Shown: piece after piece, positions 33,966 through 52,741 of the stretch | Numbering within the stretch: position 1 is the stretch's first letter | Layout: each line of letters starts with the position of its first letter | Program-made: the position numbers and the translations under genes | Notes under the pieces: model-generated | Database searches by the model: none | What the model was told of the DNA's origin: nothing | Seen by the model: the letters and a program-made list of their open reading frames with translations, nothing else | Assembly (NCBI GenBank): GCA_002405915.1 | Contig: DHMS01000033.1 | Span: 114,895 to 178,894 of the forward strand | Direction of reading: 5' to 3' | Length of the DNA stretch: 64,000 bases | Source: Christensenella sp. UBA4636 | Lineage (GTDB): Bacteria > Bacillota > Clostridia > Christensenellales > Borkfalkiaceae

Positions 33966-34008
33966 TTAACCTATTTTAACCTATTTTGTCTTTTAAAAAA
34001 TAGGTTAA
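33966..34008. repeat. Tandem AACCTATTTT x2 plus an inverted copy (AAAATAGGTTAA)
   Basis: Read directly from the sequence: TTAACCTATTTT AACCTATTTT GTCTTTTAA AAAATAGGTTAA. It lies at the left edge of the lower-GC AbiE island. Confidence 0.8.
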
Positions 34009-34066
34009 ACATATCATTTACTTTTTGTTATCCATTTCTATCAGTCAAACTTTATTAAATTTTTTG

Positions 34067-34134: not shown

Positions 34135-34176
34135 TTTTTGCGAACGCTTGAAAAAACTTTCGTCACGGATTTTACG

Positions 34177-35121: not shown

Positions 35122-35122
35122 T

Positions 35123-35761
35123 TCAGTTCACCCCTCTCGCAAGTTCCGAAAGTCCTACATACACCTTATTGTTCTTGTAATACTTCGCATAGCCTATAAG
35201 CCGTTCAAAACTCAAACCGAAAATGCCGATTTGCTTTCTTAAAATCTCTTGGTAGTTATCAGCTTCGATTTTTACTTTCATCTTATTGTCGAGCATATCG
35301 AGTAACTGCAAGTACCTAAAATTATCCCGATTGACCTGAATGACGGGTTTAATAAGATATATGCCGTCTTTCTTATCTTCCGTCGTGTATCTCGTTCGCG
35401 TGGTTACTATATAAGTCATATTCGGCATTTGCGTCGTAAGCCCTATCTTGTTCATATAGGACGGTCCGGACTCGTATCCGATTACTTCGTCGCCGTTTAC
35501 AAGATACTTTCTTTTGATAAGCTCGGTTGTGTCAATTCCGGCAACGCCGAACGGCGTATGCACCGTCTTATAGTAAATACCTTTTTGATAACGCACAAAG
35601 TCGGGATTACGCTTTTCATAACGTTGCAAAGTCATATTAAACGTTGCTTTATCCGTGTCGGGCAACTTCGATTTGACATATTCGTAAATCTCGTTCGTAT
35701 ACACCGGAACTCTCAATTCTGCTTTTTTTAGAAACTCGTCAATACACTGTGTAACAGTCAT
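35123..35761 (-). CDS. AbiEi-like antitoxin / transcriptional regulator partner
   Basis: 212 aa whose stop lies 1 nt before the toxin ATG. The N-terminus is winged-helix-like (VPVYTNEIYEYVKSKLPDTDKATFNMTLQRYEKRNPDFVRYQKGIYY). The call rests mainly on the gene pairing. Confidence 0.6.
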   Translation of the reverse strand: MTVTQCIDEFLKKAELRVPVYTNEIYEYVKSKLPDTDKATFNMTLQRYEKRNPDFVRYQKGIYYKTVHTPFGVAGIDTTELIKRKYLVNGDEVIGYESGPSYMNKIGLTTQMPNMTYIVTTRTRYTTEDKKDGIYLIKPVIQVNRDNFRYLQLLDMLDNKMKVKIEADNYQEILRKQIGIFGLSFERLIGYAKYYKNNKVYVGLSELARGVN

Positions 35762-35937
35762 TATCTCGCACCTCCGTACGATATTTTATATGTGCAACCT
35801 TCCCTTTGTTTACACGATAATAATATCACATATTAAGTTTGTTGTCAAGCCGGTTTCTCACTCTAACGGTGAATTCTTTTGTAAAAACTTGTCTTTTTAT
35901 GAAACATCATTATTATAGCTTACTTTGCCGCGCTCAA

Positions 35938-36002
35938 CACAAAAAAGAACTATCGAAAGCCGAAAAACAGCTTAGGATAGCCCTTTATTGCTATAATTTA
36001 TA
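35938..36002. repeat. Right copy of the ~65-bp direct repeat (terminator of the aminopeptidase gene)
   Basis: See the left copy at 34067-34134. I estimate roughly three quarters of positions are identical by eye. Confidence 0.75.
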
Positions 36003-38529: not shown

Positions 38530-38564
38530 AAGAGAAAAGCCGACGGGTTTTCAGTCCCGTCGGC
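38530..38564 (-). terminator. Intrinsic terminator ending the phage-like operon
   Basis: The minus strand reads GCCGACGGG-ACTGAAAA-CCCGTCGGC followed by TTTTCTCTTTTCC. Confidence 0.7.
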
Positions 38565-38573: not shown

Positions 38574-39434
38574 TTAGTCGGCTCTGTTTTTGAGAACCGT
38601 GAAAACGTAATTGTAATAATCGCCGAGATAGTCCTCGAAAGCGGGGTCGGACAAAAAGTCGCGCATAGCTTCGGCTTTGTCGTCAAACGACATGTAGTAG
38701 TCGATAACCGCGCCCACCTTTTTGATGTCGTAGCTCTTTTTTATCTTTGCGAGTTCCTCGTCGGTCGGGGCTTTCGCGGCGGAAGAATTGTATTTTACTT
38801 CCTTTTCTTCAAGCGAATTGTTGTACTTTTTAACGGCTTCCGCTTTGTCGTCGCTCTCCTTTTTGAGCCTTTCGAATTCCGTTTCGCGCGCGGTCGCTTC
38901 CTCGTCTTGGCTCGCTTTGAGCGTTTCTTCAAGCTCTAAGGTAAGTTCCTCTATTTGCTTGCGAATATCATCGGCTTTCGATTTGGAATTTTGGTCGATA
39001 ATCGACTTATCGGCTAACTTTTCCTTTTCAAGCTCGGCTATTCTGTTAGTCGCGATACTTGAGCGTTGAATACCTCTTTTAACCGCGTCCGCACTCACTC
39101 TGTCGGCGGCGGAAGCGTAGCCCGCGTCGATTGCGGCGTTGTCTTTTTCACGCTGCTTTTCAAGCTCCGCAATGGTTTCCGACAAAGAAAGTTTTTTCTT
39201 TTCCGCCGTATCCGTCGCGTTCTTTCTCGCCGTGCCGTACTTTTTTTCAATCGAAGCTTTCGCCTTTTCGTAAAGCTCGTCGTCGCTCGGACGGTCGTAT
39301 GTTAGCCTTTCGAGTTGAAGCGGCTTTTCCACCTTGCCTTTCGTTTCCGACTGATAAGCGTTTTCAAGTTCATTGAGCTTGTCGAATATCTCTTTTCTCT
39401 TCTTTTCCGATTCCTCGGTTGAATATTTTGCCAT
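38574..39434 (-). CDS. Coiled-coil hypothetical protein, last gene of the phage-like module
   Basis: The ORF track extends to 39671, but that R/K-rich N-terminus overlaps the upstream gene. ATG 39434 (MAKYSTEESEKKRKEIFDKL) has the perfect SD AAGGAGA upstream. Confidence 0.6.
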   Translation of the reverse strand: MAKYSTEESEKKRKEIFDKLNELENAYQSETKGKVEKPLQLERLTYDRPSDDELYEKAKASIEKKYGTARKNATDTAEKKKLSLSETIAELEKQREKDNAAIDAGYASAADRVSADAVKRGIQRSSIATNRIAELEKEKLADKSIIDQNSKSKADDIRKQIEELTLELEETLKASQDEEATARETEFERLKKESDDKAEAVKKYNNSLEEKEVKYNSSAAKAPTDEELAKIKKSYDIKKVGAVIDYYMSFDDKAEAMRDFLSDPAFEDYLGDYYNYVFTVLKNRAD

Positions 39435-39445
39435 AAAAATTCTCC

Positions 39446-40513
39446 TTAATTTGATTTTTTGTAAGTTAAATTCTGCCCTCTTCTTATAACATACCCTGCG
39501 CCGAGCGGCAGATACTCGTCGCCGTACGCCTTTGCTTCTCTTGCTCCCGTATCTTCGTTTATTTTGTAAATAACTCCGTCCGCCGAGCAGTAACTTTCGT
39601 TTTCTCCCGCGTGCAGATTTTCGCCTTTCCCGAGCCTTATTTTTTTGCCCGAAGCGTTTTTCGTGTACCACACGCCGTCGTATTCCTTGTAGTAAAGTCT
39701 GTTAAAGCCCGCCGTCGCCGAAATTTCGCTTGCGCTAATCTCTGCCGAAGTAGTATCGGCGGAAACGCTCAAATCGTCGTTAACGACATACTTTTTGGCT
39801 TTGCCCTTATAAAGAACATATAAATCGGGGGCGAAAACGATGAAGTCCGCGTTGACGGAAGTTGTCTTTCCGCTCGTCACGGTAGAAGTCGAAATTGTGA
39901 ATTTTCGTACGTCCACGCCGCCGTCCTTTAAAAGAGCGATTAAAATCTCGTCCGAAGAAGCAACCTTTATTGCCCCGCCCTTTACATCTTGAAACTCGAC
40001 TTTTTTAGAAAGTTCGTCGCCCGCGCAAAGGTAAAGCGAAGCGATTTTCTTTGTTCCGTCAAACGAAAACACGTAATCGTTACCGGACAAAGTATCGCCC
40101 GAAACAAAGCTTTTAAAGTCATTGCGTTTTACTATTCCGCTAACGGTAGCAAAAACTTCCGACACATTCGCAGGAGAATGAAACACAGCCTTAATTCGTC
40201 CTTCTTTTTTAGTCGCAACTCCGCCTAAGCTCAACCGATTTACGCCGATAATCGACTTATAGGTCAACATGTCAAGGTCGTCGTAAAAAATTTCTACGTC
40301 CGAAACCGCGGACGAAACAACGCTTTTATAGTTTATTTCAAAGCTTACTCTGTTGCCGATTTCCGTTAAAAAATCAAACGAATAAACGCCCGTAGCCGTC
40401 GACGACGAATCGCTTTCGGCGTACTTTATCGAAGTCACGTTTTTTACTCTCGACCACTCCTCTCTATAAAGCCTTTCAAGCATGGCAACTCGTTTTTCAA
40501 GACTTTCGTTCAT
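39446..40513 (-). CDS. Hypothetical phage-like structural protein (355 aa, beta-rich)
   Basis: ORF 39446..40531. The likely start is ATG 40513 (MNESLEKRVAMLERLYREEW). It has an N-terminal helix followed by beta-strand-like sequence, with no motif I recognise. Confidence 0.5.
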   Translation of the reverse strand: MNESLEKRVAMLERLYREEWSRVKNVTSIKYAESDSSSTATGVYSFDFLTEIGNRVSFEINYKSVVSSAVSDVEIFYDDLDMLTYKSIIGVNRLSLGGVATKKEGRIKAVFHSPANVSEVFATVSGIVKRNDFKSFVSGDTLSGNDYVFSFDGTKKIASLYLCAGDELSKKVEFQDVKGGAIKVASSDEILIALLKDGGVDVRKFTISTSTVTSGKTTSVNADFIVFAPDLYVLYKGKAKKYVVNDDLSVSADTTSAEISASEISATAGFNRLYYKEYDGVWYTKNASGKKIRLGKGENLHAGENESYCSADGVIYKINEDTGAREAKAYGDEYLPLGAGYVIRRGQNLTYKKSN

Positions 40514-40517
40514 TCTC

Positions 40518-41960
40518 TCACGCTCCCGCAAAATAGTTTAGCTTAACGCTCATTTTGCTAAGGTACGCGCCCGCGCCGCTCGCCGAATAGGATATTTTAA
40601 AGTTTTCGCCTTTAAGCCCTACCGCGATATTCTTTAATCCGTCGCCGCTAAGTTTAAACTCTCGTTCGCCCTCTTCGCTTATTACTTTAAGCGTTCCGCT
40701 TCCGCCCGAATAAAAAGTTATCCGTTCAAGCGTTTTCCTCTCCGGAACGTCGAAATCGGAATATTTACTTTCCCAGCTCATATCAAGGGGTGTGGCGAGA
40801 AAGTACGGGTTATCCGAAAGTTCGCCGAGCCGTCTTGCGGAAAAAGCGAAAAGAAGCTTGTAATGCCCCGCGGCGTACACGGAAATAAAGTGCGAAAAAG
40901 TAAAGTCTTTTATCAAAAACCAACTGTTTTCGCTGTCGTCGTAGCAAAGAATAACGTTTGTAAGCACGCCGTCCACGCGTATTTTCATCGAACAAAAATA
41001 TTTTCCGTCGTAAAAACCCGCGTAAGCGGACGAGTTGTCCACACCTTTAAGGTACCTGTCAAGCCCGCGCATAATACGCCCGGATGACGAGCCGTCAAAA
41101 TAATAAAAACCGTTGTCTGTGAGATAAAACACGACTTTGCCGCAGTCCGCGACCGTTTCGCCGTAAATTTTGGCTCTGTCCGCCTCTATTCCTGCGGCGT
41201 AAAAGTCCTCTTGGTCACCGTAAGCCGTCAAGCGCGTTATCCCGTAGTTGCGGAAAATATAAACGTAATCCTTAAAACTTATGGCTTTCAAAAGCTTGCC
41301 TCGCCCGTCTAAAAAATCGATAAACCCCGCTTCTTTGAGCGAAACGTACCAGTTAGTCGGGTCGAAGCTTTCCGAAAACCAAAGCCGAGTGTCCTCTCTG
41401 CCGCTCGTAACGAAAAGCCTTTCGCCGTGAACGCAAACGGAAGTCATTTCGGGCGCGTCGTACAAAGTCGCGTTCGTTCCGTCGTAAACGGTTATGCCGC
41501 CGCTCGTCGCAAACAGAAACACGTCCTCGCCGTTCAGTCGATAATTAACCCCGAGCGGAGCCGCCGCCGTGCTAAACGTGAGCGCATTCACCTTCGTAAA
41601 ACCCGTTTCCGTGCCTACTTCGTATTCGTAAACGTACCCGTCGTCGGCTAAAACAAGCACTCTGTCGCGCCTAACGCCGTCGTCGAAATCGAACTTTTCA
41701 TAGTAGTAAATTTTCTTCCCGACAACGCCGGTAGGAAGCGCGGGCGAATAAGTTCCGTCCTCGATAGGGAAGCTTGCGTATTGCATGCCGTACCCCGTTT
41801 TGAGCGCGCCGTCCGATAGCCGCAAGTTATACGAGCTTGCCGCCGCGTTAAAAGGAGAAAGCCTGTCGTCCTTTCTTCCGTCTATTCCGTAAGAAAAATC
41901 GAAAAGCTTTATCGTTTTTTCACGCCGCGCCGCTATAGAATAACGCCTACTCATAACCAA
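40518..41960 (-). CDS. Hypothetical phage-like structural protein (480 aa, repeat/propeller-like)
   Basis: The ORF overlaps the upstream gene by 10 nt. It has repeated aromatic-rich beta-like segments (YVYEYEV, VFLFATSGGITVYDG, RLFVTSGREDTRLWFS, VVFYLTDNGFYYFDG). Confidence 0.5.
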   Translation of the reverse strand: MVMSRRYSIAARREKTIKLFDFSYGIDGRKDDRLSPFNAAASSYNLRLSDGALKTGYGMQYASFPIEDGTYSPALPTGVVGKKIYYYEKFDFDDGVRRDRVLVLADDGYVYEYEVGTETGFTKVNALTFSTAAAPLGVNYRLNGEDVFLFATSGGITVYDGTNATLYDAPEMTSVCVHGERLFVTSGREDTRLWFSESFDPTNWYVSLKEAGFIDFLDGRGKLLKAISFKDYVYIFRNYGITRLTAYGDQEDFYAAGIEADRAKIYGETVADCGKVVFYLTDNGFYYFDGSSSGRIMRGLDRYLKGVDNSSAYAGFYDGKYFCSMKIRVDGVLTNVILCYDDSENSWFLIKDFTFSHFISVYAAGHYKLLFAFSARRLGELSDNPYFLATPLDMSWESKYSDFDVPERKTLERITFYSGGSGTLKVISEEGEREFKLSGDGLKNIAVGLKGENFKISYSASGAGAYLSKMSVKLNYFAGA

Positions 41961-42502
41961 CTCCTCTTGCGTATCTTCGGCGTTTTCCTCGAAGTTAAAT
42001 ATGAGGAAACGCCCTCTTCGAACCTATCCCTCAAAGTCACCGCTTCGCCGAAAAGTCCCGCTATAAGCAGATATTCGGCAGCTATTCCGTAAGCGACGGC
42101 GCGTTCGCCGAGCAAATCGCAAACTTTTGCGTCGTCTGTTAAAGCCGTGATTTTCGGAAAAAGATATGAATACGTGACCGTTATTTTTTCGGCTTTTACT
42201 TCTATTCTGTCGGAGTAAGTTTTAAACGGTATTTCTGCGCCCTCGTACTCGACTTTTTTAATCTTAAGAGGAGAAGATGAAAAAGAAGTATAGTAATATT
42301 TTCCGTTCCCGCTCGTAAGATTTTCTTGTTTTTCGGGCGTAACGGTCCATTCGGCAAGCTCTTCCGTAATAAGGTTAAGCGCGGCGATAAGCTTTTTCAC
42401 GTCCGCGTCGTCCGCCGTAACTTCGTCCGCGGAGAGTTTTTTGTTTAAGTCCTCCTTGCCCGCCAAAAGGCTCGCCGTAAGTAAAAGTTCTTTTACTTTC
42501 AT
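41951..42502 (-). CDS. Putative head-tail connector/adaptor-like protein
   Basis: 183 aa immediately after the capsid gene. Its size and position are typical of gp6-like head completion proteins. I recognise no motif. Confidence 0.4.
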   Translation of the reverse strand: MKVKELLLTASLLAGKEDLNKKLSADEVTADDADVKKLIAALNLITEELAEWTVTPEKQENLTSGNGKYYYTSFSSSPLKIKKVEYEGAEIPFKTYSDRIEVKAEKITVTYSYLFPKITALTDDAKVCDLLGERAVAYGIAAEYLLIAGLFGEAVTLRDRFEEGVSSYLTSRKTPKIRKRSWL

Positions 42503-42598
42503 TTTGTCTTTACCTCCTTGTTTTTCGGCGTTTTAGCCTCGCTCCCCACCGCATAAAAACGACAAGAAGCGGGGCTATAAGCCGATTATCGACTATTT

Positions 42599-43771
42599 TT
42601 ACGCTTCGGTGATACCCGTGAGCATACCCTGTCCGCACGGCTTCGCGCAGATAAGGTCGGCGTATTTTACGAGGGTAGCGGTGTAAGTCGGCGTACCGGG
42701 AATCTGCTTTAAGATTTTGCCGTCGTCGCCTTCGAGCCACTGCCAGTCGCAGAGCTGATGGAGAGTAAAGTCGTCGGTGTTAAGTAAGTACATGGTGCCT
42801 TCGGGGCAGAATCTGTCGGAAACGATGGGGATACCGTTATAGGATATCGCCTTAAATCCGCCCGCAAGGTTCATAACGTCGGTGTTTCTCTTGTACGTCG
42901 CAAGGTGGTTCATAAACGCCCTCTTTACGCCCGAGGAGCAGACGATGAAGTTGACTCTGCTGCCCGCGTCCTCTTCGAGCGTATCGATAGCCGTCTGAAT
43001 AACCGTTTCGCTTATCGCGCCGACGGAAGATTTCATGTACGGAACGAGCCACTTGTTGAGCGTTCTCGACAAGCCGTAAATAGAGCCGCTCGATTTAAAA
43101 ATCGCGCCCAAGCCCGTGATTTCCTGACCGTAGGAACCCTGAACGGTGATAAGGCAATCTGCTTTTACGGTCGAAGTATTGAAGTCGTCGCCGTCGAATT
43201 CTACGGTCTTATTAGTCTTGTCTACGGCAAGAACTCTTCTTGCGGAAGAAGCCGCTAAAAGCGCGCCGGAAGAAGACCTGATATCGACCGTCATACCCTC
43301 AACGATGTTCTTCACGCTATCGCAAGTTATGGTCGTTCCGTCAACGGAAACGACTTTCGCAAGCACGCCCGTACCGTCGCCGTAAAGCATTCTGCCGAAG
43401 TTGTAAGTCGCCGACTTAATAAGCCCTTCCATTTCGGCGTTCAAAAGGTTGACGAACGCGCCCGCGTTGTTTTCGCTTGCTCTTATCGCCTTATCGGAAA
43501 TTTCGATAGTACCGTAAAGGTTCTTCAAAGAGAGAGTGAAAGTGTCGTAATTGTTTCCGCCGGCTGCGGGCAACGCGCCCGTTTCGGTACCGGCACCTAC
43601 GCCGCCGTTAACGCCGTGCTGAGCAAGTCTTTTAATTTCCTTGCCCCAAACGTCGGAAGTCGACTGTTTGATTTTAGCAAGCAACGGGTTGACCGCAGTG
43701 TTCATTTGTTCGGTGATTACACCGAGGTAAAGTGTTTTTAATGCGTTAGACGCACTGGATAAAGTTATCAT
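42599..43771 (-). CDS. Phage major capsid protein (HK97-fold type likely)
   Basis: 390 aa directly after the scaffold gene. An N-terminal helix (NALKTLYLGVITEQMNTAVNPLLAKI) is followed by a Gly-rich loop, in the canonical gene order. A GC hairpin follows the stop (42520-42570). Confidence 0.75.
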   Translation of the reverse strand: MITLSSASNALKTLYLGVITEQMNTAVNPLLAKIKQSTSDVWGKEIKRLAQHGVNGGVGAGTETGALPAAGGNNYDTFTLSLKNLYGTIEISDKAIRASENNAGAFVNLLNAEMEGLIKSATYNFGRMLYGDGTGVLAKVVSVDGTTITCDSVKNIVEGMTVDIRSSSGALLAASSARRVLAVDKTNKTVEFDGDDFNTSTVKADCLITVQGSYGQEITGLGAIFKSSGSIYGLSRTLNKWLVPYMKSSVGAISETVIQTAIDTLEEDAGSRVNFIVCSSGVKRAFMNHLATYKRNTDVMNLAGGFKAISYNGIPIVSDRFCPEGTMYLLNTDDFTLHQLCDWQWLEGDDGKILKQIPGTPTYTATLVKYADLICAKPCGQGMLTGITEA

Positions 43772-43801
43772 AATTTCTTTTACTCCTTAATTTTTATTTT
43801 T

Positions 43802-44476
43802 TTATTTTATTATGATATAGTCTTTGGCGAGCATCCCGGCTTCAGCCAAAGTTTTGGGTTTGACGGGCGGCATAACCGCAATACTTCCGCCGTTCCCTAA
43901 AAGTTTAGGGGTTTTCGGAGAGTTTTTTACGCCCGAAAGGTAAGCTTTTATAACTCTGTCCTTAATCGGTGTACTTTCGATTTGACCGTACAAAAACTCC
44001 TCGTCGTTAAGCTTTGCTCTCAGCTCTTCGGCTTCACGTAGCAAGCATTTAACGTAAGCTTTCTCCAAAAACTCCTTGTCGCCGAGGTTTTCGCCCGATT
44101 CGGCAAAATCGGCTATTTTCTCGGCATACTTTGCGGCTTCGGGAAATTTTTTGTAAAACTCCTCCGCGCCGCTTAAACCCCTTTCGCCTTTTTCCGCGTT
44201 TTCCCGCGCTTTTTTCTCCGCTTCAAGAGCGGCTTTTTCTTTCTCCGCGCTAAGCTTGAACTCGGTTAATTCGGCTACTTTCCCTTCCAGTTCCTTAATC
44301 CGTTGACTGCGTTTGGTGAATTCGGATTCGAGTGAACCGTAAGCTTTTTCAAGCGACTTAACGTCTTTGAACTTTTTCAATGAGGTCGAGGTCTGCTCGT
44401 CGCGCCCTTCTAAAATTTCTTCTGCCTCCGCAGTTTGCGCCGCGACCGCGGCTTGTTCATTTTTAAGCTCTTCCAT
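43802..44476 (-). CDS. Phage capsid scaffolding protein
   Basis: 224-aa acidic coiled coil (KFKDVKSLEKAYGSLESEFTKRSQRIKELEGKVAEL), lying between the portal and capsid genes. Confidence 0.7.
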   Translation of the reverse strand: MEELKNEQAAVAAQTAEAEEILEGRDEQTSTSLKKFKDVKSLEKAYGSLESEFTKRSQRIKELEGKVAELTEFKLSAEKEKAALEAEKKARENAEKGERGLSGAEEFYKKFPEAAKYAEKIADFAESGENLGDKEFLEKAYVKCLLREAEELRAKLNDEEFLYGQIESTPIKDRVIKAYLSGVKNSPKTPKLLGNGGSIAVMPPVKPKTLAEAGMLAKDYIIIK

Positions 44477-44494
44477 GATATCCTCCCGCTTATT

Positions 44495-46375
44495 TTAATT
44501 TGCTTTTTCGCTTAAATTTTGAATTTTTTCGGCGTTTTCCTCTCTCAAAAACGCCTTGTGCGCTCTTATATGAGCGAGCGCGTTCTCTTTAACTTTCTTT
44601 TCGTCGCCGAACAGCGCCGCTTCTCCCGATAAAAGGAAACGCGTATGTTCGGTGATATGCAGGTCGTGGTCGTCGAATTCTTCGGGTTCAACTTTCCCTT
44701 TTATGAATTCGAGATTTTCGCCCGAAGCCTTCGAAATGTGCAAATTCGTCAAATCTTGCACACTGTCGAAGTTGCCGTACCCTAAAATTTCCAGAATTTT
44801 GGCTTTCGTTCTCGGGTTCATCTGCCCGTCGCCGTCCGTCAAAAGCCCGGTCGAAAGTAGATCGTAAATACTGCTCTTCTTCTGCGCCGGGGTGGACGAA
44901 AGCTCGTTTTCTGTATCGAACACAACGTCGTCGCTCGTCAAATCCGACGCGTTGAAGTAGAACACTTCGCTCTTTCTGTTATCGCCCGCAATGCGCATAA
45001 GCCTCGTATCGGTCGCAAATTGTCTAAAAAGCCTTATAATCTGCTTTCCGACCTCACGCACCGCCCGCCTTACGTTCTCCGCCGTAACGGACAATCTCGT
45101 TTCGTCTTGCTCCACGAGAAGTTGAAGCGCAACGCCGCTCGTCGCCGTCGTCGGTAAGGAGGAATTGCGCGAAATTTCGCTTACGCCGCTTATCGTGATG
45201 AACTCGCTTGAAAGCCTTTCTTCCTCGTAAGTAAAGTCCACCGGCACGCTTTGCGCGTTGAGCATTCTCGGCGGCTCCGCGCCTTGGCGATAAACAATAA
45301 CTTTTCCAGGCGGCAAGCCCTCTTCGGCAAGCGCGTCGGTATCAACGGAGCCGTCCTCGACGGTCATGACTCCCACGCTCACTCTGTTCAAAAACTCATG
45401 CTTTCTGTTCTTGACGGCGTTGTAAGCCCTCTGCAACGGAATAATCCTTTCAACCACGCTCACGCCGAAAAACGTTCCCGCCTGAGAGTTACTGTCTTGC
45501 TTGACGAACGGAAAATCTCGTTCGCCGTCCCTGCCGTTTAAGTACGGCAAGTCGGAAATAGCAAGTATCTTGTCGCCCGCAACAGTCACTACGCGCCCGT
45601 TCGGGAACTCCATGCTCGGTCTTTCGTACCGCTCGATGACTATCGCCGAATCCCTTGCCGCGCCCGAACCTATGCCGCGCGCGTTCGCCGTCGCTCTGCC
45701 CGTAGTTTTCGTGAGCGAGAAAACGTCGACTTCTTCGCCCTCCACTTTCACGCCGTAAACGTCCTCGATTTCCTTAACGGGTACGGCGCGCGCATGAATG
45801 AGCGATTTTTGCTCGGCTATGTCTTGGCGGAACAAACTTTCGGGAAATATTTCGAAAGGAGAAACGGCTATTACTTCCACGTCGCCCTCCGTAACTTTCT
45901 CCCCGTTCACGCTCCCGAGCGTTTTGCCCGCGTTTGCGTTCCAGGTTATTTTATAGAACGCCGAACCGAGCGTTTCGCTCCACAACGTCGCTTTAGAAAT
46001 TATCCCGTCAAGACCTATGCGCGAACAAGTCGCGTTTAAGACTCCCGAAGATATCCTCGCGGTTTTAATGTCCGCTTCCTCGCTACCCGCCGCCCTTACG
46101 CTCATAACGGGTCTAACCCTCGAAAGTTTAGCTATTCTCGTTTCGACTATAGGCGCGATATGGTTGTAAACGTTCCGCCTTTGCCAGTAATAGTCCTCTT
46201 CCTCTTCTCTCACGTCGCCGTCGGAAGCGATTTCGCAGTACTGGTTGCCCATCAGATAATTCATGTTGAGCCGCCACTGTTGTTCGAGCGCGCGCCTTTC
46301 GCTTCTTCTTCGTTCGAAGTCCTCTTTAACCTCGGCGGCAAGCTCGTCGTAAAAAACTTCTTTACTTTCTTTCAT
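44495..46375 (-). CDS. Phage portal protein
   Basis: 626 aa, downstream of the terminase and upstream of the scaffold. The N-terminal region RRALEQQWRLNMNYLMGNQY is typical of portal families. Confidence 0.75.
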   Translation of the reverse strand: MKESKEVFYDELAAEVKEDFERRRSERRALEQQWRLNMNYLMGNQYCEIASDGDVREEEEDYYWQRRNVYNHIAPIVETRIAKLSRVRPVMSVRAAGSEEADIKTARISSGVLNATCSRIGLDGIISKATLWSETLGSAFYKITWNANAGKTLGSVNGEKVTEGDVEVIAVSPFEIFPESLFRQDIAEQKSLIHARAVPVKEIEDVYGVKVEGEEVDVFSLTKTTGRATANARGIGSGAARDSAIVIERYERPSMEFPNGRVVTVAGDKILAISDLPYLNGRDGERDFPFVKQDSNSQAGTFFGVSVVERIIPLQRAYNAVKNRKHEFLNRVSVGVMTVEDGSVDTDALAEEGLPPGKVIVYRQGAEPPRMLNAQSVPVDFTYEEERLSSEFITISGVSEISRNSSLPTTATSGVALQLLVEQDETRLSVTAENVRRAVREVGKQIIRLFRQFATDTRLMRIAGDNRKSEVFYFNASDLTSDDVVFDTENELSSTPAQKKSSIYDLLSTGLLTDGDGQMNPRTKAKILEILGYGNFDSVQDLTNLHISKASGENLEFIKGKVEPEEFDDHDLHITEHTRFLLSGEAALFGDEKKVKENALAHIRAHKAFLREENAEKIQNLSEKAN

Positions 46376-46541
46376 CGTTTTTCCCGCCCGTCGCCATAAC
46401 GGCTTTTTTCAGCTCCGAAAAACAACTTCTGCAAAGGTTAAAGCTTGCGCTTTTTCCGTCGAACGTCAGTCTAAACTCCGCAAGGTTTCCGCACCCCGGC
46501 ACGTCGCACACGATTTTGTCTTTCAATTTTTCGATTTTCAT
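46362..46541 (-). CDS. Unlisted small zinc-ribbon-like ORF (59 aa) overlapping the portal start
   Basis: It falls below the 60-aa cut-off of the ORF track. My translation is MKIEKLKDKIVCDVPGCGNLAEFRLTFDGKSASFNLCRSCFSELKKAVMATGGKNDERK. It contains two Cys pairs, has the SD AAGGAG upstream, and its stop overlaps the portal ATG by 14 nt. Confidence 0.5.
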   Translation of the reverse strand: MKIEKLKDKIVCDVPGCGNLAEFRLTFDGKSASFNLCRSCFSELKKAVMATGGKNDERK

Positions 46542-46556
46542 AAAATCTTTTACTCC

Positions 46557-46841
46557 TTAATTGTTGTTTTTTAGTTCTTCGATGAGCCTTAACTTTTCTT
46601 TTTCAAGCTCTTCGTCCGTCATCGAAGAATAGTCTTTTTTCTCTTCGCTAAACGCGTCGAGAACCATCTTCGCCGCTTGCGTATCGGGCGGAAAGTGCTT
46701 TTTGGTCACTTTCTTTTTGGTCAGAACAAGTCCGTTGTCCGTGTCTTGATACTCTTCCACGACTTCTTTCGCGTCGTAGCCGACCGCCTTCTTCGTAAGC
46801 GCGCTTCTGATTTTTTCCTTAACGCTCTCTTCACTTTTCAC
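46557..46841 (-). CDS. Small protein resembling the C-terminal part of phage small terminase subunits
   Basis: 94 aa. The segment KKAVGYDAKEVVEEYQDTDNGLVLTKKKVTKKHFPPDTQAAKMVLD resembles the TerS motif ...E.VE......K.V.K..PPD..A..FWL. I see no N-terminal HTH. Confidence 0.4.
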   Translation of the reverse strand: MKSEESVKEKIRSALTKKAVGYDAKEVVEEYQDTDNGLVLTKKKVTKKHFPPDTQAAKMVLDAFSEEKKDYSSMTDEELEKEKLRLIEELKNNN

Positions 46842-46844
46842 GTT

Positions 46845-48260
46845 TTACACTCCTCGTCGTTTTATTTTTCTCATAAGCCTCTCCTTGTCTTTTTGTACCG
46901 CCGTTAGTTTTTCCGTTATTTTCGGACCGGCGGGTCTCGTCATGATATAGTAACGTAGCGCGTCGAGCGCGTGGTCGTCACGCTTAATCGGCGCGTCCTC
47001 GTTGCCCCAGTAGTAACTTTTCAGTTCGCGTATAAGGTTTACGCAATTTTTAAAGATATAAAGCCTTTTCCCTTTGAAGTATTCCTTAACGCGCGCTATC
47101 CCCGTGAACAAATCCTTGTTAACCCGCGTGTCCACGGCAATTCCTTGTTCGAAGAATAGTTGCGCCACGCTTGCAGGTCCGTTCAACGTCTTTTGGTTCG
47201 CCGCACTATCAATTAGCGCGTAAATTCTGCCCGCTTTGTCCTTCTTCCAGTTAAGCTTTTCGCAAATATCCTTTATCTTTTCGGCGTGGTAAGAAATATT
47301 CCGCCCCGCTTCGAAGTGTTCCGCCGCAACGTACACGGCGTCGTCGTAATCGACGTAAAACCACAACGCCGCAAGCGGGTTATTTAGCCCCGGGTCAACG
47401 GAAATTCCGCTCTGCCATTCGTCGGGGAGCTTTCTCGGCTCAATAACGTGTACGTTCTCGTCGAACTCTCCGTATACAATTCCGCACGCGTTCTTGAACC
47501 GCCCGAACCTGCGCGATTCGAGTTCGTCCTTGTCCATGCACTCCGAAAGTCTTTTGACTTCCTTTTTATCGAGGAACGGGTTGTCCGCCCATTCCATGAA
47601 TTCATACCACACTTCTTTGGAATTGAATTTATTGAGATAAATCTCATCGTATATAAACGTCAATCCCTTTAAAGGCGTCATCGTGCCGAAAATTTCGCCG
47701 CACTTATCGAGAACGCGCATTTTGCATTCTTCGTACACGTCCTTAGGCGGCTCCTCGTCGAACCACACGAAGTCCAAGCTTGAACCTTGAAACTTTTCGC
47801 GCCCTTGGTCGCAACTTTTAAAGCCTATCCGCGAAATTCCGCCGAACACGTTTTTTACGAGTATCTGGTCGATTATCCCGTTTTCCGGGCTACCGCGCCG
47901 CCCTTCGCTCATAATAACGTCCTCAATCCAGTCGGGGTTTAGGTAGGAAAGTATCTTCTTTTGCGCAACGTCGCGCTGAACTTGCGCCGAAAGAGAAACC
48001 ACCCACCCGAACACGTTAGGCTTGTTTTTCTTGTACGGGTGACACCCCCGCGCAAGATAAATTGTTTCCACCGCGCCGCATTCCGTCTTTCCGCTTCTGT
48101 TCCCGCCGAACACCCAGCGATTCTTTTTCTTGCATTTATGGAACGCAATTTGTTTTTTATGAACTTTTTTGCCCGAATTATAACGGGACAACAAATCGTT
48201 ATCCCGTCGCCTTAGCTGCTCTCGCTCGATGGCGAGAACCTCTTCAATAAGATTTTTCAT
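46845..48260 (-). CDS. terL: Phage terminase large subunit
   Basis: 471 aa with a Walker A (FGGNRSGKTECG), a Walker B (LDFVWFDEEP) and nuclease motifs (ALIDSAANQ, KRDDHALDALRYY). Confidence 0.9.
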   Translation of the reverse strand: MKNLIEEVLAIEREQLRRRDNDLLSRYNSGKKVHKKQIAFHKCKKKNRWVFGGNRSGKTECGAVETIYLARGCHPYKKNKPNVFGWVVSLSAQVQRDVAQKKILSYLNPDWIEDVIMSEGRRGSPENGIIDQILVKNVFGGISRIGFKSCDQGREKFQGSSLDFVWFDEEPPKDVYEECKMRVLDKCGEIFGTMTPLKGLTFIYDEIYLNKFNSKEVWYEFMEWADNPFLDKKEVKRLSECMDKDELESRRFGRFKNACGIVYGEFDENVHVIEPRKLPDEWQSGISVDPGLNNPLAALWFYVDYDDAVYVAAEHFEAGRNISYHAEKIKDICEKLNWKKDKAGRIYALIDSAANQKTLNGPASVAQLFFEQGIAVDTRVNKDLFTGIARVKEYFKGKRLYIFKNCVNLIRELKSYYWGNEDAPIKRDDHALDALRYYIMTRPAGPKITEKLTAVQKDKERLMRKIKRRGV

Positions 48261-48339
48261 GATTTACGACAATCCTCTACAAAATTTTCTTTTCTTCCTT
48301 AAAAACGTTTATACTCCGCCGAGTTATAATCTTTCTACT

Positions 48340-49086
48340 ATGAAAAAGCTTATACTCCTGTTTTTAATAATATCGACTTTTGTTTCGGCGGTTTTTTCTC
48401 CGCCCGTTTTACGGTCAACGCCCGCGAGCGCGGCTTTGTACACCTACGCCCGCGTGGTCGTTTCCGACGCCGTTTTTTACGCCGACCGTTCGCTTTCTCT
48501 TCCGCGCTTTTTCTTGCCGGAAAGCTACTTCGTCCGCGTAATTTCCATCGACTCCGACGTTTGCCGCGTCGCTTATATGGACGGAGCGGCGCGCCCCGTC
48601 AAGGAGGGTTACGTAAAAACGGTCGCTTTGAGCTTCGTTGCCGAAACCCCGCCCGTTATTTATCCGGACATAACCCTTTCCGTCAAAAACGAAGAAGTTC
48701 TTTTTTCCGACTTAACGAGCTTCACGCCCCGCGCCGTGCTTTCGACTTCCTCTTCCGCCGTCTATTACGGCGAAACGACTTTCGGCGGCGAAACTTACGT
48801 TTACGTCTACGCCTCGGGTTACGTCGGCTACGTTCGTAAGTCGGGCTTTTCTCCCTTTTCCGTGCCGCTTTTAAGCGATTATAGGCGCGTTACCGAAGAA
48901 AGCTCCGCTTCCTCTTCTCAAAGCGGAAGCTCTTCTTCTCAAAACTCCGAAAAATCGGCTCTCGGCGCGGATACCGGCAAAATTGCGGTTATCGCCGCCG
49001 CGCTCATCGCCGTGGTGTCGCTCGTCTTTATCGTCACGCGCCCCTCTAAGAAGAACGCCAACGCTTTTTACAAAGACGACGACTAA
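48340..49086 (+). CDS. Signal-peptide protein with two SH3b-like domains, an S-rich linker and a C-terminal TM anchor
   Basis: ORF 48229..49086. The likely start is ATG 48340 (MKKLILLFLIISTFVSAVFS), only 10 nt after a TATAAT (48325-48330). The C-terminal TM is IAVIAAALIAVVSLVFIV. Confidence 0.55.
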   Translation: MKKLILLFLIISTFVSAVFSPPVLRSTPASAALYTYARVVVSDAVFYADRSLSLPRFFLPESYFVRVISIDSDVCRVAYMDGAARPVKEGYVKTVALSFVAETPPVIYPDITLSVKNEEVLFSDLTSFTPRAVLSTSSSAVYYGETTFGGETYVYVYASGYVGYVRKSGFSPFSVPLLSDYRRVTEESSASSSQSGSSSSQNSEKSALGADTGKIAVIAAALIAVVSLVFIVTRPSKKNANAFYKDDD

Positions 49087-49111
49087 GCTTTTACTTATAC
49101 CTTAAAAAACT

Positions 49112-49789
49112 TTAAGCAAGCCTTGTCGGGAAAACTCTTATAACGATAGGCTTTTTCGCCGCGGAAGCGCACGCCGCGCCGGCTTGAGAAAGCCCGCCTA
49201 CCGATAGTTTTTGCTCGTTCGCCCCGCTTTCTTTTGCCGCGGGTTTTACGGGAATGTTTACGCGCGCCTTTCTCGGTCTGCCCCTTCTTTTGAAAAGGAA
49301 GGGGTTGTTTTCCGTTTCGTCCGCGCGTCCTATGCTTTCTACTAACGTACTGAGCCGACTGCGCTTATTTTCCGAAAACCTCTTCGCCCACGAATACTTG
49401 CCGTACTCCCTGTCAAAGCTTGCTTCGTCAAGACCGACGTAAGAAAGATATTCTTCTAACAAGGCTTCCGCGAGCGTTAATCTGCGGTAATAACCGCTCT
49501 TCGAAAACCTTTTTTCCTCTCCGCCTTTCGGCAATACGTTCAAATATCGATACATCAATATTTCGCGATAATCTTTTCCCAGCCTTTCAAGCACGACCTT
49601 CACTCTCTTTTTTAGCCACAGTAAATCTTCTTTCTCTTTTGCTTTTAACGAAACCTCGTCGAATATTCCTTCGACGGATTTTTTAAAACAGAAACTTCTT
49701 ACGCAAATCGTGCGTATTTCCTCGTTAATCGCTTCAACCCTCGAGTCGCACGAACGGTAAAGCAGCAGAATTTTTTTTGAGTAACTCAT
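49112..49789 (-). CDS. Putative phage late-gene activator-like regulator (sigma-70 region-4 / RinA-ArpU-like) with a C-terminal AT-hook-like motif
   Basis: 225 aa. The segment YREILMYRYLNVLPKGGEEKRFSKSGYYRRLTLAEALLEEYL resembles sigma region 4 and phage late activators. The C-terminal FKRRGRPRKARV carries the RGRP core. The SD GGAGGAG lies upstream. Confidence 0.4.
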   Translation of the reverse strand: MSYSKKILLLYRSCDSRVEAINEEIRTICVRSFCFKKSVEGIFDEVSLKAKEKEDLLWLKKRVKVVLERLGKDYREILMYRYLNVLPKGGEEKRFSKSGYYRRLTLAEALLEEYLSYVGLDEASFDREYGKYSWAKRFSENKRSRLSTLVESIGRADETENNPFLFKRRGRPRKARVNIPVKPAAKESGANEQKLSVGGLSQAGAACASAAKKPIVIRVFPTRLA

Positions 49790-49836: not shown

Positions 49837-49865
49837 ATTATACCAAGCTTTTCACCGAATTTCAA
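49837..49865 (-). promoter_or_regulatory. Near-consensus sigma-A promoter (proximal) for the 225-aa regulator
   Basis: The minus strand reads TTGAAA (49865-49860), 17-nt spacer, TATAAT (49842-49837). Confidence 0.6.
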
Positions 49866-50233: not shown

Positions 50234-52741
50234 ATGAAACGGACTATTTCTTTTATCCTCTCCCTCGCAAGCTTATTTTTGATTGTCGGAGGGGCTTACG
50301 ACTTACAAATAAATAAAAAAACGACCGAGGCGCACGCCTTAGAACGGGTTTCGACTTCCGTTATCTCCCCCGCCTCGTACCCGGAATACCTCGAACTTTC
50401 CTCCCCCGTTGACGTTTTCGTCGACGGAGAACCTACCGACGGCGACTACGTTTTAGCCATAGCCGAACCGCACAAAATCTTCGTCTACAAAAACGGCGTT
50501 TACACAAGCTATCCGCTTACCGAGTACACCGTGTCTAAGCTTGCCGTGTTCGGCGATTACGTAATCTTCCTTTCAAGCTCGGGCATCTACTATTTTTCGA
50601 CCGAAACGCCCGCGGAAAGCTTTGAAGTTATAGATTCCGGCGTGAAATCGGCAAACAGTTTCGTTTTGACGGCAAGCCTCTTAATAGTCAACCCGTCGAG
50701 CGAAATACGCTCTTACGAAGTCGTAACTGCAGAAACTTCCCTTCAATTTATTCCTAAAAACTCTTCGAGCCTTAATTACACGCCCTCGTGCTTGGCTTAC
50801 GACAACGGCAGCACCTATTACTTTTTCGAAAAGACTTTAAGGCGTTTTTCAATGGACACGCCCGTTGAAATCGCGCGAAATTTGAAAGAGCCGCGTTACG
50901 CGGTCGCAGGCAACGGTTACGTTTATTTTTCTTCGGCGGACGGCATTTACGCCGTAGACCTCGCCACGGGAAAAGCCCCCGCAGACCCCATTGTGCCGAC
51001 AAGCTCCGTAAACGCCCTTTCAAGCCTCGTTTCGCCCCAAGGTCTATTCCTTTACGGCAAGTCGCTTTACATATGCGACAGTTCGATTGACGCCGTAATG
51101 GTAATAAATATCGATACAAACGAGTTTACGAATTTCGCGATAACCGCGCGCGGAGATTTGCCCAACAGAGTGACCTCTCAACCCAAAGCAATCGCCGCAA
51201 ACGACTTGTCGCTTTTTATCCTCGACGATTCGCAAGTTAAAATTTACGATTTGAACGCAAAAACTTTCACCGCCGAAAAATTAGAAGGCGTAGGCGGAAG
51301 CGACAAAATCGCCGCGACCGCTTCCTCTCTTTTGGTAGCCTCGGGCGACGATTTAAACCTTTTCAAGCTAAATCAATCGGGAACATACGAACGCGCGGAA
51401 ATTTTAAGCGACACGGCAAACTACCGCAACGTTACGGCGATTTGCGCGTACGACAAGAATTTTTATTTTATAAACAACGAGCTTTTAGACAGCGTTTCCC
51501 ATGCGGTTATTTACGAAGTCGACGTTACCACCCGCACGATAAAACGCCTTGCAGACATCAAAGGCACGGGCGAGCTTATAACTTCCGACGTGTTCGGTCG
51601 CCTTTACGCCACCGTTTATTCCAACGGCGAATATAAAGTTTTCGGCAGCGAAGAAAACGTTTTCACCGAAAACGGCTTGCTCCTTTCGACTACAGTAAAA
51701 CCGTTAGCCTCTTTCGTCGATATCGAGGGCACCGTGTTTTTACTCTCGGAAGCAAATAAAATAACGGCGGTAACGACCGACAAAACTTCCACGAAGACGG
51801 AATACGAACTCTCCCTTTCTCAAAACTTGCCAGCCTTAACCGCGCTCGACGCTTGCCTCGTTCCCGCTTCCGACAAAACCTTTTTCCTTTATAAAGGCTT
51901 CGTCCTCACGGCTTCGACCTCTCTTAACGTTGCCACCCCCGAAAAGCTTTCCGTTCCCGAAGATTATTCGGTCGAACTCAACAAAAAGCCCGAAAAGGTA
52001 TCGATAGCCGAAAACGCCCGCTATTTCGGCGTAGACCTTGCAAAGACCGCCGAAAAGAACGTTTTCGAATACGTCGGCTACGGCGCGGAAGAAACCGAAA
52101 AGGAATATCTCTTGCTTGCCGAAACCGACCGTTACGCATTAGTTACGAGCAACGAAAAATCCGCCGTCGTCCGCAAAGACGATATCATCAAAATTTCCGA
52201 CGGCATAACCGAAAAGAAAGGTAAATATTACCTCGTAACGGACGTAAACGCCTACTCTTACCCCGTCGCCCGCGACCCCTTCGCCAAGTTTTGTTTAAGC
52301 TACAACGAGCAAATCGAAGCGTTAGGCACAATCGCCTTGAACGGCAAAAGCTTCACTCTCGTAAAGCGCGGCGAGGACGAGGGCTACGTTCCCTCCTCGA
52401 TGCTCAAATCGGCAATCGCGGCGGACTCCACCCCACACGAATATTACACGGCGGCGGTAGGCAGAAGCGGCGCAAAAGTTTATTCCGACGAAGCCTTAAC
52501 CGAAGAAGTAGGCTTTTTTAACCCATCAACGGATATTTTCGTTTTAAAAGACGACGGCAAAATCGCCGCCGTTCTATACGAAGGCAAGGTTTGCTATCTC
52601 GACTCCACGCTCCTAAAACCGCACGGCTATTACGCTATAAGGTATCTTTTAGTCGTCGTAATCTTAGTTTTCGCCCTCTTCTCCACGGGCTACTATCTCA
52701 TCAAAACCCGCGTGTTCAAAAAGAAGAACGAAGAAGCCTAA
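50234..52741 (+). CDS. Large exported beta-propeller-like protein with two C-terminal SH3b-like domains and a C-terminal TM anchor
   Basis: 835 aa with an N-terminal signal/anchor (ISFILSLASLFLIVGGAY) and repeated beta-strand blocks. Near the C-terminus it has EDEGYVPSSMLKS and GKVCYLDSTLLK, then a TM (YLLVVVILVFALFSTGYYLI). Confidence 0.55.
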   Translation: MKRTISFILSLASLFLIVGGAYDLQINKKTTEAHALERVSTSVISPASYPEYLELSSPVDVFVDGEPTDGDYVLAIAEPHKIFVYKNGVYTSYPLTEYTVSKLAVFGDYVIFLSSSGIYYFSTETPAESFEVIDSGVKSANSFVLTASLLIVNPSSEIRSYEVVTAETSLQFIPKNSSSLNYTPSCLAYDNGSTYYFFEKTLRRFSMDTPVEIARNLKEPRYAVAGNGYVYFSSADGIYAVDLATGKAPADPIVPTSSVNALSSLVSPQGLFLYGKSLYICDSSIDAVMVINIDTNEFTNFAITARGDLPNRVTSQPKAIAANDLSLFILDDSQVKIYDLNAKTFTAEKLEGVGGSDKIAATASSLLVASGDDLNLFKLNQSGTYERAEILSDTANYRNVTAICAYDKNFYFINNELLDSVSHAVIYEVDVTTRTIKRLADIKGTGELITSDVFGRLYATVYSNGEYKVFGSEENVFTENGLLLSTTVKPLASFVDIEGTVFLLSEANKITAVTTDKTSTKTEYELSLSQNLPALTALDACLVPASDKTFFLYKGFVLTASTSLNVATPEKLSVPEDYSVELNKKPEKVSIAENARYFGVDLAKTAEKNVFEYVGYGAEETEKEYLLLAETDRYALVTSNEKSAVVRKDDIIKISDGITEKKGKYYLVTDVNAYSYPVARDPFAKFCLSYNEQIEALGTIALNGKSFTLVKRGEDEGYVPSSMLKSAIAADSTPHEYYTAAVGRSGAKVYSDEALTEEVGFFNPSTDIFVLKDDGKIAAVLYEGKVCYLDSTLLKPHGYYAIRYLLVVVILVFALFSTGYYLIKTRVFKKKNEEA

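Follow-up and report, generated by a model that had tools for sequence, protein, structure and literature searches.

A host-maintained, podovirus-derived particle module in Christensenellales, probably of the gene transfer agent type

Introduction

What kind of element is a compact run of phage packaging, capsid and tail genes that lies among housekeeping genes, with about 10 kb on either side free of integrase, replication and lysis genes? The question is raised by a stretch of 64,000 nucleotides from Christensenella sp. UBA4636 (contig DHMS01000033.1), here called the window, whose numbering is used for all positions. The window is chromosomal, containing the dcw cluster from mraW to ftsZ, BipA and further housekeeping genes, and at positions 38574-48260 of its minus strand it carries an operon of ten open reading frames (ORFs), here called the module. 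An earlier examination of the letters and their translations (the sequence-only reading) had proposed that this is a domesticated particle-forming element, either like a gene transfer agent (GTA) or a capsid-forming satellite, or else the head half of a podovirus-like remnant in which two proteins might be novel tail or fibre proteins.

GTAs are known in detail from few lineages, mostly Alphaproteobacteria, and the Christensenellales are a heritable, health-associated group of the gut. The literature that we searched describes no GTA genes in Christensenellales and makes no mention of DUF7934, the family of the last protein of the operon. The analysis reported here makes it very likely that the module is a particle-forming element maintained by its host, and it is probable that the particle is a domesticated, vertically inherited one of the GTA type, derived from a podovirus, in the Christensenellales. 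The idea of a domesticated particle-forming element is upheld by three observations, namely that the module is intact in hundreds of species, that it evolves under purifying selection, and that it diverges together with its host.

Results

Operon structure and composition

The ten ORFs occupy 9.7 kb in the ORF listing, and a metagenome contig of identical sequence, on which genes had been called independently, shows the same genes. Their order is TerL, a TerS-like protein, a zinc-ribbon protein, portal, scaffold, major capsid protein (MCP), an adaptor-like protein, proteins of 478 and 355 amino acids (aa), and a DUF7934 protein of 286 aa, after which comes a terminator. The gaps between genes are −14 to +30 nt throughout, save for one spacer of 96 nt that holds a hairpin. 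The sequence-only reading had described these items, with intact frames and overlapping or abutting genes, and each was found where it had placed it. The range that it gave, 38574-49789, holds for its operon part only, as positions 48340-49086 and 49112-49789 hold two genes that it had left undescribed; the single-strand operon is therefore 38574-48260. Together with these two genes (for a membrane protein and a 225-aa regulator) and a gene for an 835-aa protein, the region comes to about 14 kb.

The terminator at the operon end (38539-38564, minus strand), which had been called strong, has a 9-bp stem with 8 GC pairs followed by the T-run TTTTCTCTTT. The RNA hairpin that had been noticed 3′ of the MCP gene (~42525-42585, minus strand) is imperfect and has no U-tract (ΔG −32.5 kcal/mol, z −2.17); it is likely an mRNA stabiliser or a partial attenuator. 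A search of Rfam with the 38-53 kb region found no known regulatory RNAs. The base composition, judged by eye in the sequence-only reading to be that of the flanking housekeeping genes, bears this out in numbers, with a GC content of 0.486 for the module versus 0.482 for the host and a third-position GC content (GC3) of 0.573 versus 0.556. Relative synonymous codon usage gave a correlation with the host of 0.89 for the module versus 0.95 for a host-half control. The composition and codon usage of the module are those of its host, and the module is fully ameliorated.

Packaging and head genes

All of the genes in this and the following section are on the minus strand. TerL (46845-48260), the ATPase and nuclease of the packaging motor, matches Terminase_6N (1e-9), Terminase_6C (1.5e-11) and phrog_2 (3e-29). 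Its Walker A (GGNRxGKT), Walker B (VWFDEE) and TMTP motifs and the nuclease residues D289, D351, D429 and D433, which had been reported as intact, are kept without exception (100%) in 54 distinct homologues. The invariance of both the ATPase and the nuclease motifs implies that DNA packaging itself is under selection. The protein also matches the PBSX terminase model TIGR01547 weakly (1.3e-9, below the model cut-off).

The 94-aa ORF that follows (46557-46841) matches phrog_309, annotated as "terminase small subunit," at 3.2e-6 and phrog_23444 at 0.003. Since the phrog_309 match is confined to profile positions 191-252 of 319, the ORF resembles a C-terminal TerS fragment, in keeping with the "TerS-like fragment" of the sequence-only reading. 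Profile searches detected no DNA-binding domain in it. The family is present in 49 loci with a mean identity of 45%. Next is a 59-aa ORF (46362-46541) in which a zinc ribbon (CxxC...CxxC) can be read and which overlaps the start of the portal gene by 14 nt; tblastn found homologues of 35-56% identity at about 30 genome loci and about 12 loci of viral collections.

The portal protein (44495-46375) is of the P22/SU10 type (P22_portal 1.1e-24, SU10_portal 8e-11, phrog_156 6e-45). Between it and the MCP lies a helical, charged protein of 224 aa (43802-44476), a candidate scaffolding protein by its position and composition; profile searches returned no family match for it, and its family is present in 71 loci. 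The MCP (42599-43771) has the HK97 fold and is of a podovirus type (phrog_14242 1.3e-63; NF033394 capsid_maj_Podo 3.5e-82). It has more than 6,800 homologues, and the top 120 are all at least 70% identical, 387-392 aa long and on contigs of at most 675 kb. An encapsulin was considered and ruled out by the presence of a portal and TerL.

Tail genes

The sequence-only reading had seen no recognisable tail. This did not survive structural comparison of the 478-aa protein (40518-41954), which has about 100 detectable homologues, 67 of which were used for AlphaFold2. The model is all-beta and of high confidence (predicted local distance difference test [pLDDT] 93.2, predicted template modeling score [pTM] 0.91). 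When it was compared with the Protein Data Bank (PDB) by Foldseek, the best matches were all podovirus tail nozzle or hub proteins: the tail protein of Pa223 (9nwi_Y; E 2.6e-20, template modeling [TM] score 0.72), that of VP1 (8zkk_O; TM 0.75) and, further, P22 gp10 (9jg6_a and 8eap_D), T7 gp12, SU10 and the crAss001 muzzle. On this model, the 478-aa protein is an ordinary podovirus nozzle or hub, a beta-propeller protein of the P22 gp10 / T7 gp12 class and of the P22 gp10 type.

Between the MCP and the nozzle gene is an ORF of 183 aa (41951-42502) with matches to HCP (0.0033) and phrog_442 (0.006); among 38 homologues, SU10_adaptor was matched in two and HCP in two. We tentatively regard it as a head-to-tail adaptor. 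With the nozzle and this adaptor-like neighbour, the module does encode the core of a short tail, in addition to the head and the packaging motor, and it is thus more complete than the sequence-only reading had supposed.

The gene after the nozzle gene encodes a 355-aa protein (39446-40513) with an N-terminal helix, a jelly-roll and a propeller-like region. Only eight homologues, all at least 69% identical, were found among 5.8 billion proteins. By hhalign it is related to a family of about 300 aa that occupies the same post-nozzle slot elsewhere (probability 98.9%, E 1.2e-17, 15% identity), a link that HMMER did not find, and that family weakly resembles a GH2 sugar-binding jelly-roll followed by a TolB-propeller domain. 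Foldseek matches of the AlphaFold2 model of the 355-aa protein (pLDDT 52) were to generic propellers at TM ≤0.30 and were taken as uninformative. We infer that the 355-aa protein evolves fast, binds carbohydrate and belongs to the distal part of the tail. These are the properties to be expected of a receptor-binding protein, for which it is a candidate. The suggestion that the proteins then called 480 and 355 aa might be tail proteins was thus right in substance, as the former is the predicted nozzle and the latter the distal-tail candidate.

The last gene (38574-39434) encodes a charged, coiled-coil protein of 286 aa that belongs to DUF7934 (PF25588, 2.3e-25). A gene of this family ends the operon in 54 loci; it has no PHROG match, and its product is a probable virion component. 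Structure and profile comparison of the five unassigned proteins, which the sequence-only reading had recommended, was informative in part: it identified the 478-aa protein as a nozzle, and searches of the PDB with the DUF7934 and TerS-like families (by profile) and with the adaptor family (by sequence and profile) gave only noise. A tailocin was ruled out as there are no sheath or tube genes.

The tail and packaging genes bear on the possibility that a conserved phage-derived particle is kept for a purpose other than transfer, with DNA packaging as a by-product. Such a purpose might be killing or competition in the manner of PBSX, the release of DNA or cell contents in programmed lysis, or defence against related podoviruses, for instance as a decoy. 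Conservation and selection show that the particle is useful and not what it is useful for, and the very fast evolution of the distal tail protein (8 close homologues, and 15% identity to its counterparts) would fit an arms race over cell-surface recognition, in killing or competition as well as in transfer. The authors who described the GTA of Faecalibacterium prausnitzii (FpGTA) leave the same question open (PMC12946183). However, the invariant TerL motifs mean that packaging itself is selected, killing particles known so far have contractile or long tails, for which the module has no genes, and Christensenellaceae DNA has been found inside capsids in vivo (PMC12946183). We therefore regard a purpose other than transfer as unlikely.

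Mobility, replication and lysis genes

Profile and repeat searches confirmed the absences that the sequence-only reading had listed. In the window, the 10 kb or so on each side of the module are free of integrase, replication and lysis genes and of any gene the size of a tape measure; the window has no tRNA gene and contains nothing like an operon for fibre or receptor-binding proteins, holin and endolysin anywhere in its 64 kb. The direct repeats that a search of the flanks brought up were all shared ribosome-binding-site contexts, and no pair resembled an att site. The flanks of six further loci (L003-L005 and L161-L163) were annotated with Pfam, as were those of the window, and no integrase, replication or lysis genes were seen in them; the other loci were compared by gene-family maps, which showed no conserved phage-type neighbours. 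The sequence-only reading had held that contiguous lysis or integrase genes in a standard prophage layout would speak against it, and what adjoins the module in the annotated loci is housekeeping genes. A plasmid or an integrative and conjugative element was ruled out, as the genes of such elements are absent.

These results tell against the second form of the original proposal, a satellite like the capsid-forming phage-inducible chromosomal islands (cf-PICIs) that would depend on a helper phage to be induced, to obtain tails and to lyse the cell. The module has its own capsid and packaging genes and neither lysis nor replication genes, as have cf-PICIs. But cf-PICIs carry an integrase, a regulation and replication module and att sites and have no tail genes, and the module is the opposite, lacking integrase, att and replication genes and having the adaptor and nozzle. 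In the loci examined it does not behave like a mobile island, as it stays at a syntenic site and diverges together with its host across many species. A satellite is therefore extremely improbable and largely refuted.

Distribution and selection

In a genome scan with one genome per species, MCP relatives turned up in at least 581 genomes; the 80 best loci were analysed, and as they come from 80 different assemblies, no genome is represented twice. Most are labelled Christensenellaceae, Candidatus Borkfalkia or unclassified Clostridia, and a few have names that are apparently mis-assigned. The MCPs of these 80 loci are 63-96% identical. The gene order is identical wherever a contig covers the module: regulator, membrane gene (opposite strand), TerL, TerS-like gene, often a zinc-ribbon gene, portal, scaffold, MCP, adaptor, nozzle, a variable protein of about 300 aa, often an ORF of about 74 aa, and DUF7934. 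The flanks are housekeeping genes that differ by subclade (yqfC/yqfD/phoH/ybeY/era; alanine racemase/FTHFS/mraZ/mraW; SDR/M18 peptidase), and the neighbourhood near mraZ/mraW is partly conserved at larger scale. Widely common on the upstream side is the gene for the 835-aa protein, often preceded by a gene like that for single-stranded-DNA-binding protein (SSB), and this includes contigs of 25-34% GC.

The ratio of nonsynonymous to synonymous substitution rates (dN/dS) is 0.03-0.10 for the MCP, TerL and portal genes (0.03-0.06 for TerL), at dS values of about 0.3 to >1, and mostly 0.1-0.4 for the other genes of the module; the scaffold gene and the small ORF are higher in a few pairs. The divergence of the module follows that of the flanking housekeeping genes; PhoH, for example, is 75-81% identical where the MCP is 73-80% identical, and from pair to pair the module genes diverge in correlation with one another (r 0.56-0.93). 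The module has the signature of an element that is maintained by the host and vertically inherited, and not that of a decaying or mobile prophage. Selection rather than decay had been suspected from the intact frames in the window; the occurrence in hundreds of species, the dN/dS values well below 1 and the co-divergence with the flanks substantiate this. The comparison of synteny and selection in related genomes that had been proposed gave the same order, partly conserved neighbours and dN/dS values of 0.03-0.4, and, where frameshifts in orthologous copies would have indicated decay, the module is intact in all of the dozens of species in which contigs cover it.

Some sublineages depart from this pattern upstream. 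In the locus pairs L050/L051, L063/L068 and L065/L070, the genes from TerS-like through DUF7934 are kept, and a search with TerL hidden Markov models showed that TerL is not upstream of them; the regulator and membrane genes are not there either. The stretch searched was at least 6 kb in the first two pairs and the 1.5-2.8 kb of available contig in the third. The dN/dS of portal and MCP is about 0.05 in the L050/L051 and L063/L068 pairs, which suggests a split locus in these sublineages.

The same data bear on another reading, in which the remnant of a cryptic or defective podovirus prophage, or the structural part of a functional prophage that has its other modules elsewhere, was kept by chance or arrived recently. 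All of its recognisable genes are phage structural or packaging genes, IMG/VR classes many fragments that bear it as viral, and a gene for a phage-type SSB-like protein lies nearby. Against this stand a module that is intact in dozens of species with dN/dS of 0.03-0.4 at saturating dS, a divergence in step with that of flanking host genes, an ameliorated composition, and a site with housekeeping genes on both sides and with no integrase or att found. A prophage remnant of this sort is very unlikely and largely refuted. The narrower proposal of the sequence-only reading, the head half of a podovirus remnant, was rejected because every gene is under purifying selection.

Relatives among phages and viral contigs

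Among 50,697 records of isolated phages, none is more than 31% identical to the module in TerL, portal or MCP. IMG/VR contains 75 contigs with a relative of the capsid gene, and about 50 of these carry the module itself. Many of these loci (L086-L136) are short, module-bearing fragments that are catalogued as viral, with host GC contents of 0.25-0.50; they are probably chromosomal fragments that were scored as virus. Two phage-like relatives, L132 and L134, are on IMG/VR contigs of 35-45 kb, with MCPs that are 43% and 37% identical to that of the module. Both have additional tail or ejection genes of 464-807 aa after the nozzle gene that the module is without, and in L132 these large genes are accompanied by a DUF7934-like gene. 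The module gives the impression of a podovirus of this kind reduced to what a minimal particle needs. Nor is it a complete prophage of the P22/SU10 kind, as no contiguous replication, lysis, lysogeny, tailspike or ejection genes were found in the Pfam-annotated loci.

Upstream genes

Upstream of TerL is a gene for a 225-aa protein (49112-49789, minus strand) with resemblance to sigma-70 region 4 and to RinA/Ltr proteins and with an AT-hook-like tail. The family occupies this position in 42 loci, and 35 of its members gave weak matches to Sigma70_r4_2 (5e-6), Phage_antitermQ, DUF1492 and DUF722; a PDB profile search put sigma region 4 on top at E 0.18, which is noise level. DUF1492 and DUF722 are members of the RinA/Ltr superfamily, whose late-gene activators are encoded upstream of the terminase genes of Gram-positive phages, and on account of these RinA/Ltr-type matches the 225-aa protein is the candidate late-gene activator of the module. 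The gene has a sigma-70-like promoter (49837-49865, minus strand) in which TTGAAA and TATAAT are 17 nt apart, with an extended TG and 11 of 12 matches.

Between the regulator and TerL, on the plus strand, is a gene for a 248-aa protein (48340-49086) in which a signal peptide and a C-terminal transmembrane segment, hence a bitopic membrane protein, can be read. The gene is in the same position in 44 loci, and its product has no Pfam or PHROG match. In the divergent spacer at 48261-48339 and about 50 equivalents of it, a TATAAT-like box of the membrane gene lies only about 10-14 nt from the ATG, so that the gene may be transcribed with almost no leader. The same set of spacers has a recurrent TTGTC(G/A) motif at 2-8 nt from the TerL ATG, on its 5′ side.

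The neighbouring 835-aa protein (50234-52741, plus strand), whose membership of the system is uncertain, combines two beta-propellers with SH3b and is either secreted or anchored. It matches PknD/PQQ-type propellers down to 1e-10 and SH3_3, and a homologue adjoins the regulator gene in at least 30 loci. Receptor, release and regulation are possible roles of the 835-aa and 248-aa proteins. The SSB-like protein of 228 aa (60856-61542, minus strand; SSB 1.7e-16, phrog_26861 4e-32 over its full length), also of uncertain membership, is phage-type and is encoded about 11 kb upstream of the module region in the window. Its gene adjoins the 835-aa homologue, or is one gene removed from it, in L044, L055, L062, L069, L116 and L122; in L079 and L083 it is likewise on the upstream side, at a greater distance. 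In the window, an 8-kb insert (GH3, a Big_2 surface protein and a lipoprotein) parts the two genes. The SSB-like gene may be an ancestral neighbour of the module that was displaced in the window and may be an accessory gene of the element.

Other features of the window

Three further observations concern other parts of the window. Directly after ftsA, a single ORF of 1,271 codons (13166-16981, minus strand) has FtsZ domains at residues ~773-1078. Ahead of these are about 750 residues that are of low complexity and extremely rich in Glu, uninterrupted by an in-frame stop; either this FtsZ is extended N-terminally by a giant acidic stretch or its translation starts internally. Between the module and the dcw cluster, an AbiEii-type toxin gene (34177-35121) and an adjacent ORF of 212 aa (35123-35761) lie in a patch of low GC content (0.39-0.41, 33000-36000) that looks like a small inserted defence island. 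At 5352-10465 (minus strand), two adjacent genes for FtsK/SpoIIIE-family ATPases (556 and 1,146 aa) lie beside a gene of 841 aa with no assigned role, and the pair is reminiscent of a type VII secretion (EssC-like) locus.

Discussion

A working model of the element can be assembled from these genes. The 225-aa sigma-region-4-like protein, expressed from its own sigma-70 promoter, may turn on the operon from TerL to DUF7934, as its weak profile matches would suggest. The portal, scaffold and MCP, whose genes are observed, would assemble into a procapsid, and the hairpin after the MCP gene could keep the MCP transcript at a high level. TerL and the 94-aa TerS-like protein would then fill heads with host DNA by a headful mechanism, presumably with no preference for the element's own DNA. 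The adaptor, nozzle, 355-aa protein and DUF7934 protein would close the portal and form a short, carbohydrate-binding tail, of which the nozzle is predicted from structure and the other parts are putative. Release would need lysis genes encoded outside the window, as it does outside the main cluster in RcGTA and FpGTA. Such an element would be unable to replicate, integrate or excise and would persist only as long as the host lineage keeps it.

Several points weigh against a GTA. The module is known here from its genes alone and not from particles, random host-DNA cargo or delivery to recipients. Lysis genes, a tail needle, a plug and ejection proteins were not found in the window. As the nearest phage-like relatives are on contigs of 35-45 kb, a head of this type could hold the whole module. 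The TerS assignment and the role of the 225-aa protein as activator both draw on weak profile matches and are correspondingly tentative. The three sublineages that lack TerL at the site indicate that some copies may be incomplete, and for most of the 80 loci the flanks were compared by clustering only. Lastly, the packaging of Christensenellaceae DNA described below is not linked to the genes of this module.

That packaging was reported in human gut viromes, where GTA-like patterns were found for the Christensenellaceae metagenome-assembled genomes HGM11616 (4.1 and 7.1 kb) and QANA01 (6.3 kb) with no genes assigned, as well as for several other gut Clostridia, again with the genes unnamed (PMC12946183). 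These fragments of 4.1, 6.3 and 7.1 kb are smaller than the module (at least 9.7 kb). A broader reading would join all of these observations: an ancient GTA spread across the Christensenellales and possibly more Clostridia, to judge by the contigs of 25-34% GC, that was domesticated independently of FpGTA, is inherited together with a sigma-like activator, an SH3b-type membrane protein, a surface protein with beta-propellers and an SSB of phage type, and is the basis of the 4-7-kb packaging of Christensenellaceae DNA. We put this forward as a possibility that is somewhat short of an even chance in its entirety.

If this broader reading is right, the element would be among the most widespread gene-transfer machines of gut Bacillota. 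The earliest report of a podovirus-like GTA, and of any GTA of a gut commensal, dates from 2026 (PMC12946183), and the module is a concrete candidate for the Christensenellaceae packaging to which no genes have been assigned. Should that link be true, a large share of the capsid-borne bacterial DNA in the gut would be explained. The MCP, TerL, nozzle and DUF7934 would then also serve as a marker set for elements that virus-detection pipelines mislabel as viral.

Comparison with known systems

Podoviruses with a portal and nozzle of the P22/SU10 type are one group of relatives. The nearest isolates are actinobacterial podoviruses, namely the members of Jasminevirus (Arthrobacter phages Jasmine, Casserole and Adat), Microbacterium phage Shocker and Cellulosimicrobium phage DS1, which share with the module the order TerL, portal, scaffold and MCP at 23-30% identity in TerL, portal and MCP, and the nozzle has the fold of those of P22, T7, SU10, VP1 and Pa223. 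However, the Jasminevirus group are autonomous phages of 45 kb with lysis, DNA-metabolism and large minor-tail genes, whereas the module is about 10 kb long, has none of those genes and is fixed in host chromosomes. PBSX is, like the module, a phage-like element of Bacillota chromosomes and packages host DNA in small heads, but it is myovirus-like, about 28 kb long, has lysis genes of its own and forms a killing particle, and the similarity of the module to it is limited to TerL. The cf-PICIs, which like the module are not complete phages and provide their own capsid and packaging genes, differ by being mobile, in keeping with the integration and replication genes discussed above.

The general features of GTAs are present in the module, namely a cluster of structural and packaging genes without replication, integration or excision genes that is maintained in a host lineage. 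RcGTA and others of its type (CcGTA and DsGTA) likewise are domesticated, vertically inherited head, packaging and tail clusters under purifying selection, with a TerS that lacks a DNA-binding domain, lysis and accessory genes elsewhere, and no self-propagation. RcGTA, in contrast to the module, is of the siphovirus type. Its cluster of about 15-17 genes includes those for tape measure, tail tube and baseplate, and its proteins are unrelated to those of the module; the module has no tape-measure-sized gene and no matches to RcGTA families, and it has a P22/SU10-type portal and, from the adaptor and podovirus nozzle, presumably a short tail. Regulation differs as well, being by CtrA and GafA in RcGTA and perhaps by the sigma-region-4-like protein in the module.

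The closest parallel is FpGTA, a podovirus-like GTA shown experimentally in F. prausnitzii (Borodovich et al., Nat Commun 2026, PMC12946183). Its particles are 40 nm in size and carry 8.4-8.9 kb of random host DNA, and the authors leave their purpose open (PMC12946183). Operon I of FpGTA comprises ten ORFs in about 10 kb. It begins with a TerS that lacks a DNA-binding domain, TerL and portal; MCP comes after one more gene, and a nozzle like P22 gp10 follows further on. Behind the nozzle and one other gene is a charged coiled-coil protein annotated as "TolA," the third most abundant protein of the particle, and fibres and lysis genes are in a separate operon (PMC12946183). As a GTA candidate the module is of the same kind, being likewise a chromosomal ten-ORF operon of about 10 kb that is conserved across a clade of gut Clostridia. 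Both have TerL, portal, a scaffold-position gene, MCP, a P22-gp10-like nozzle, one more gene after it and then a charged coiled-coil protein ("TolA" in FpGTA, DUF7934 in the module), together with a putative TerS without a DNA-binding domain, and neither has replication or integration genes.

The two nevertheless differ in several respects. In the module, TerL is separated from the portal gene by the TerS-like and zinc-ribbon genes and is preceded by a regulator gene and, on the opposite strand, a membrane gene, and the host is of another order; no second operon for fibres and lysis was seen in the window, and FpGTA is known from more than its genes. The MCP of FpGTA has been named as N4-gp56 family, whereas in the NCBIfam comparison the MCP of the window and 60 of 60 diverse relatives match NF033394 capsid_maj_Podo and have no match to N4-gp56 or another podovirus capsid model at E≤0.001, so that by capsid family the module falls outside the FpGTA family. 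Protein clustering of FpGTA found no homologues outside Faecalibacterium in data that included Christensenellaceae (PMC12946183). The family names and this published clustering set the module apart from FpGTA and indicate, if indirectly, that it is not a close relative. Should the link to the packaging of Christensenellaceae DNA be true, the module would be a second, independent domestication of a podovirus to set beside FpGTA.

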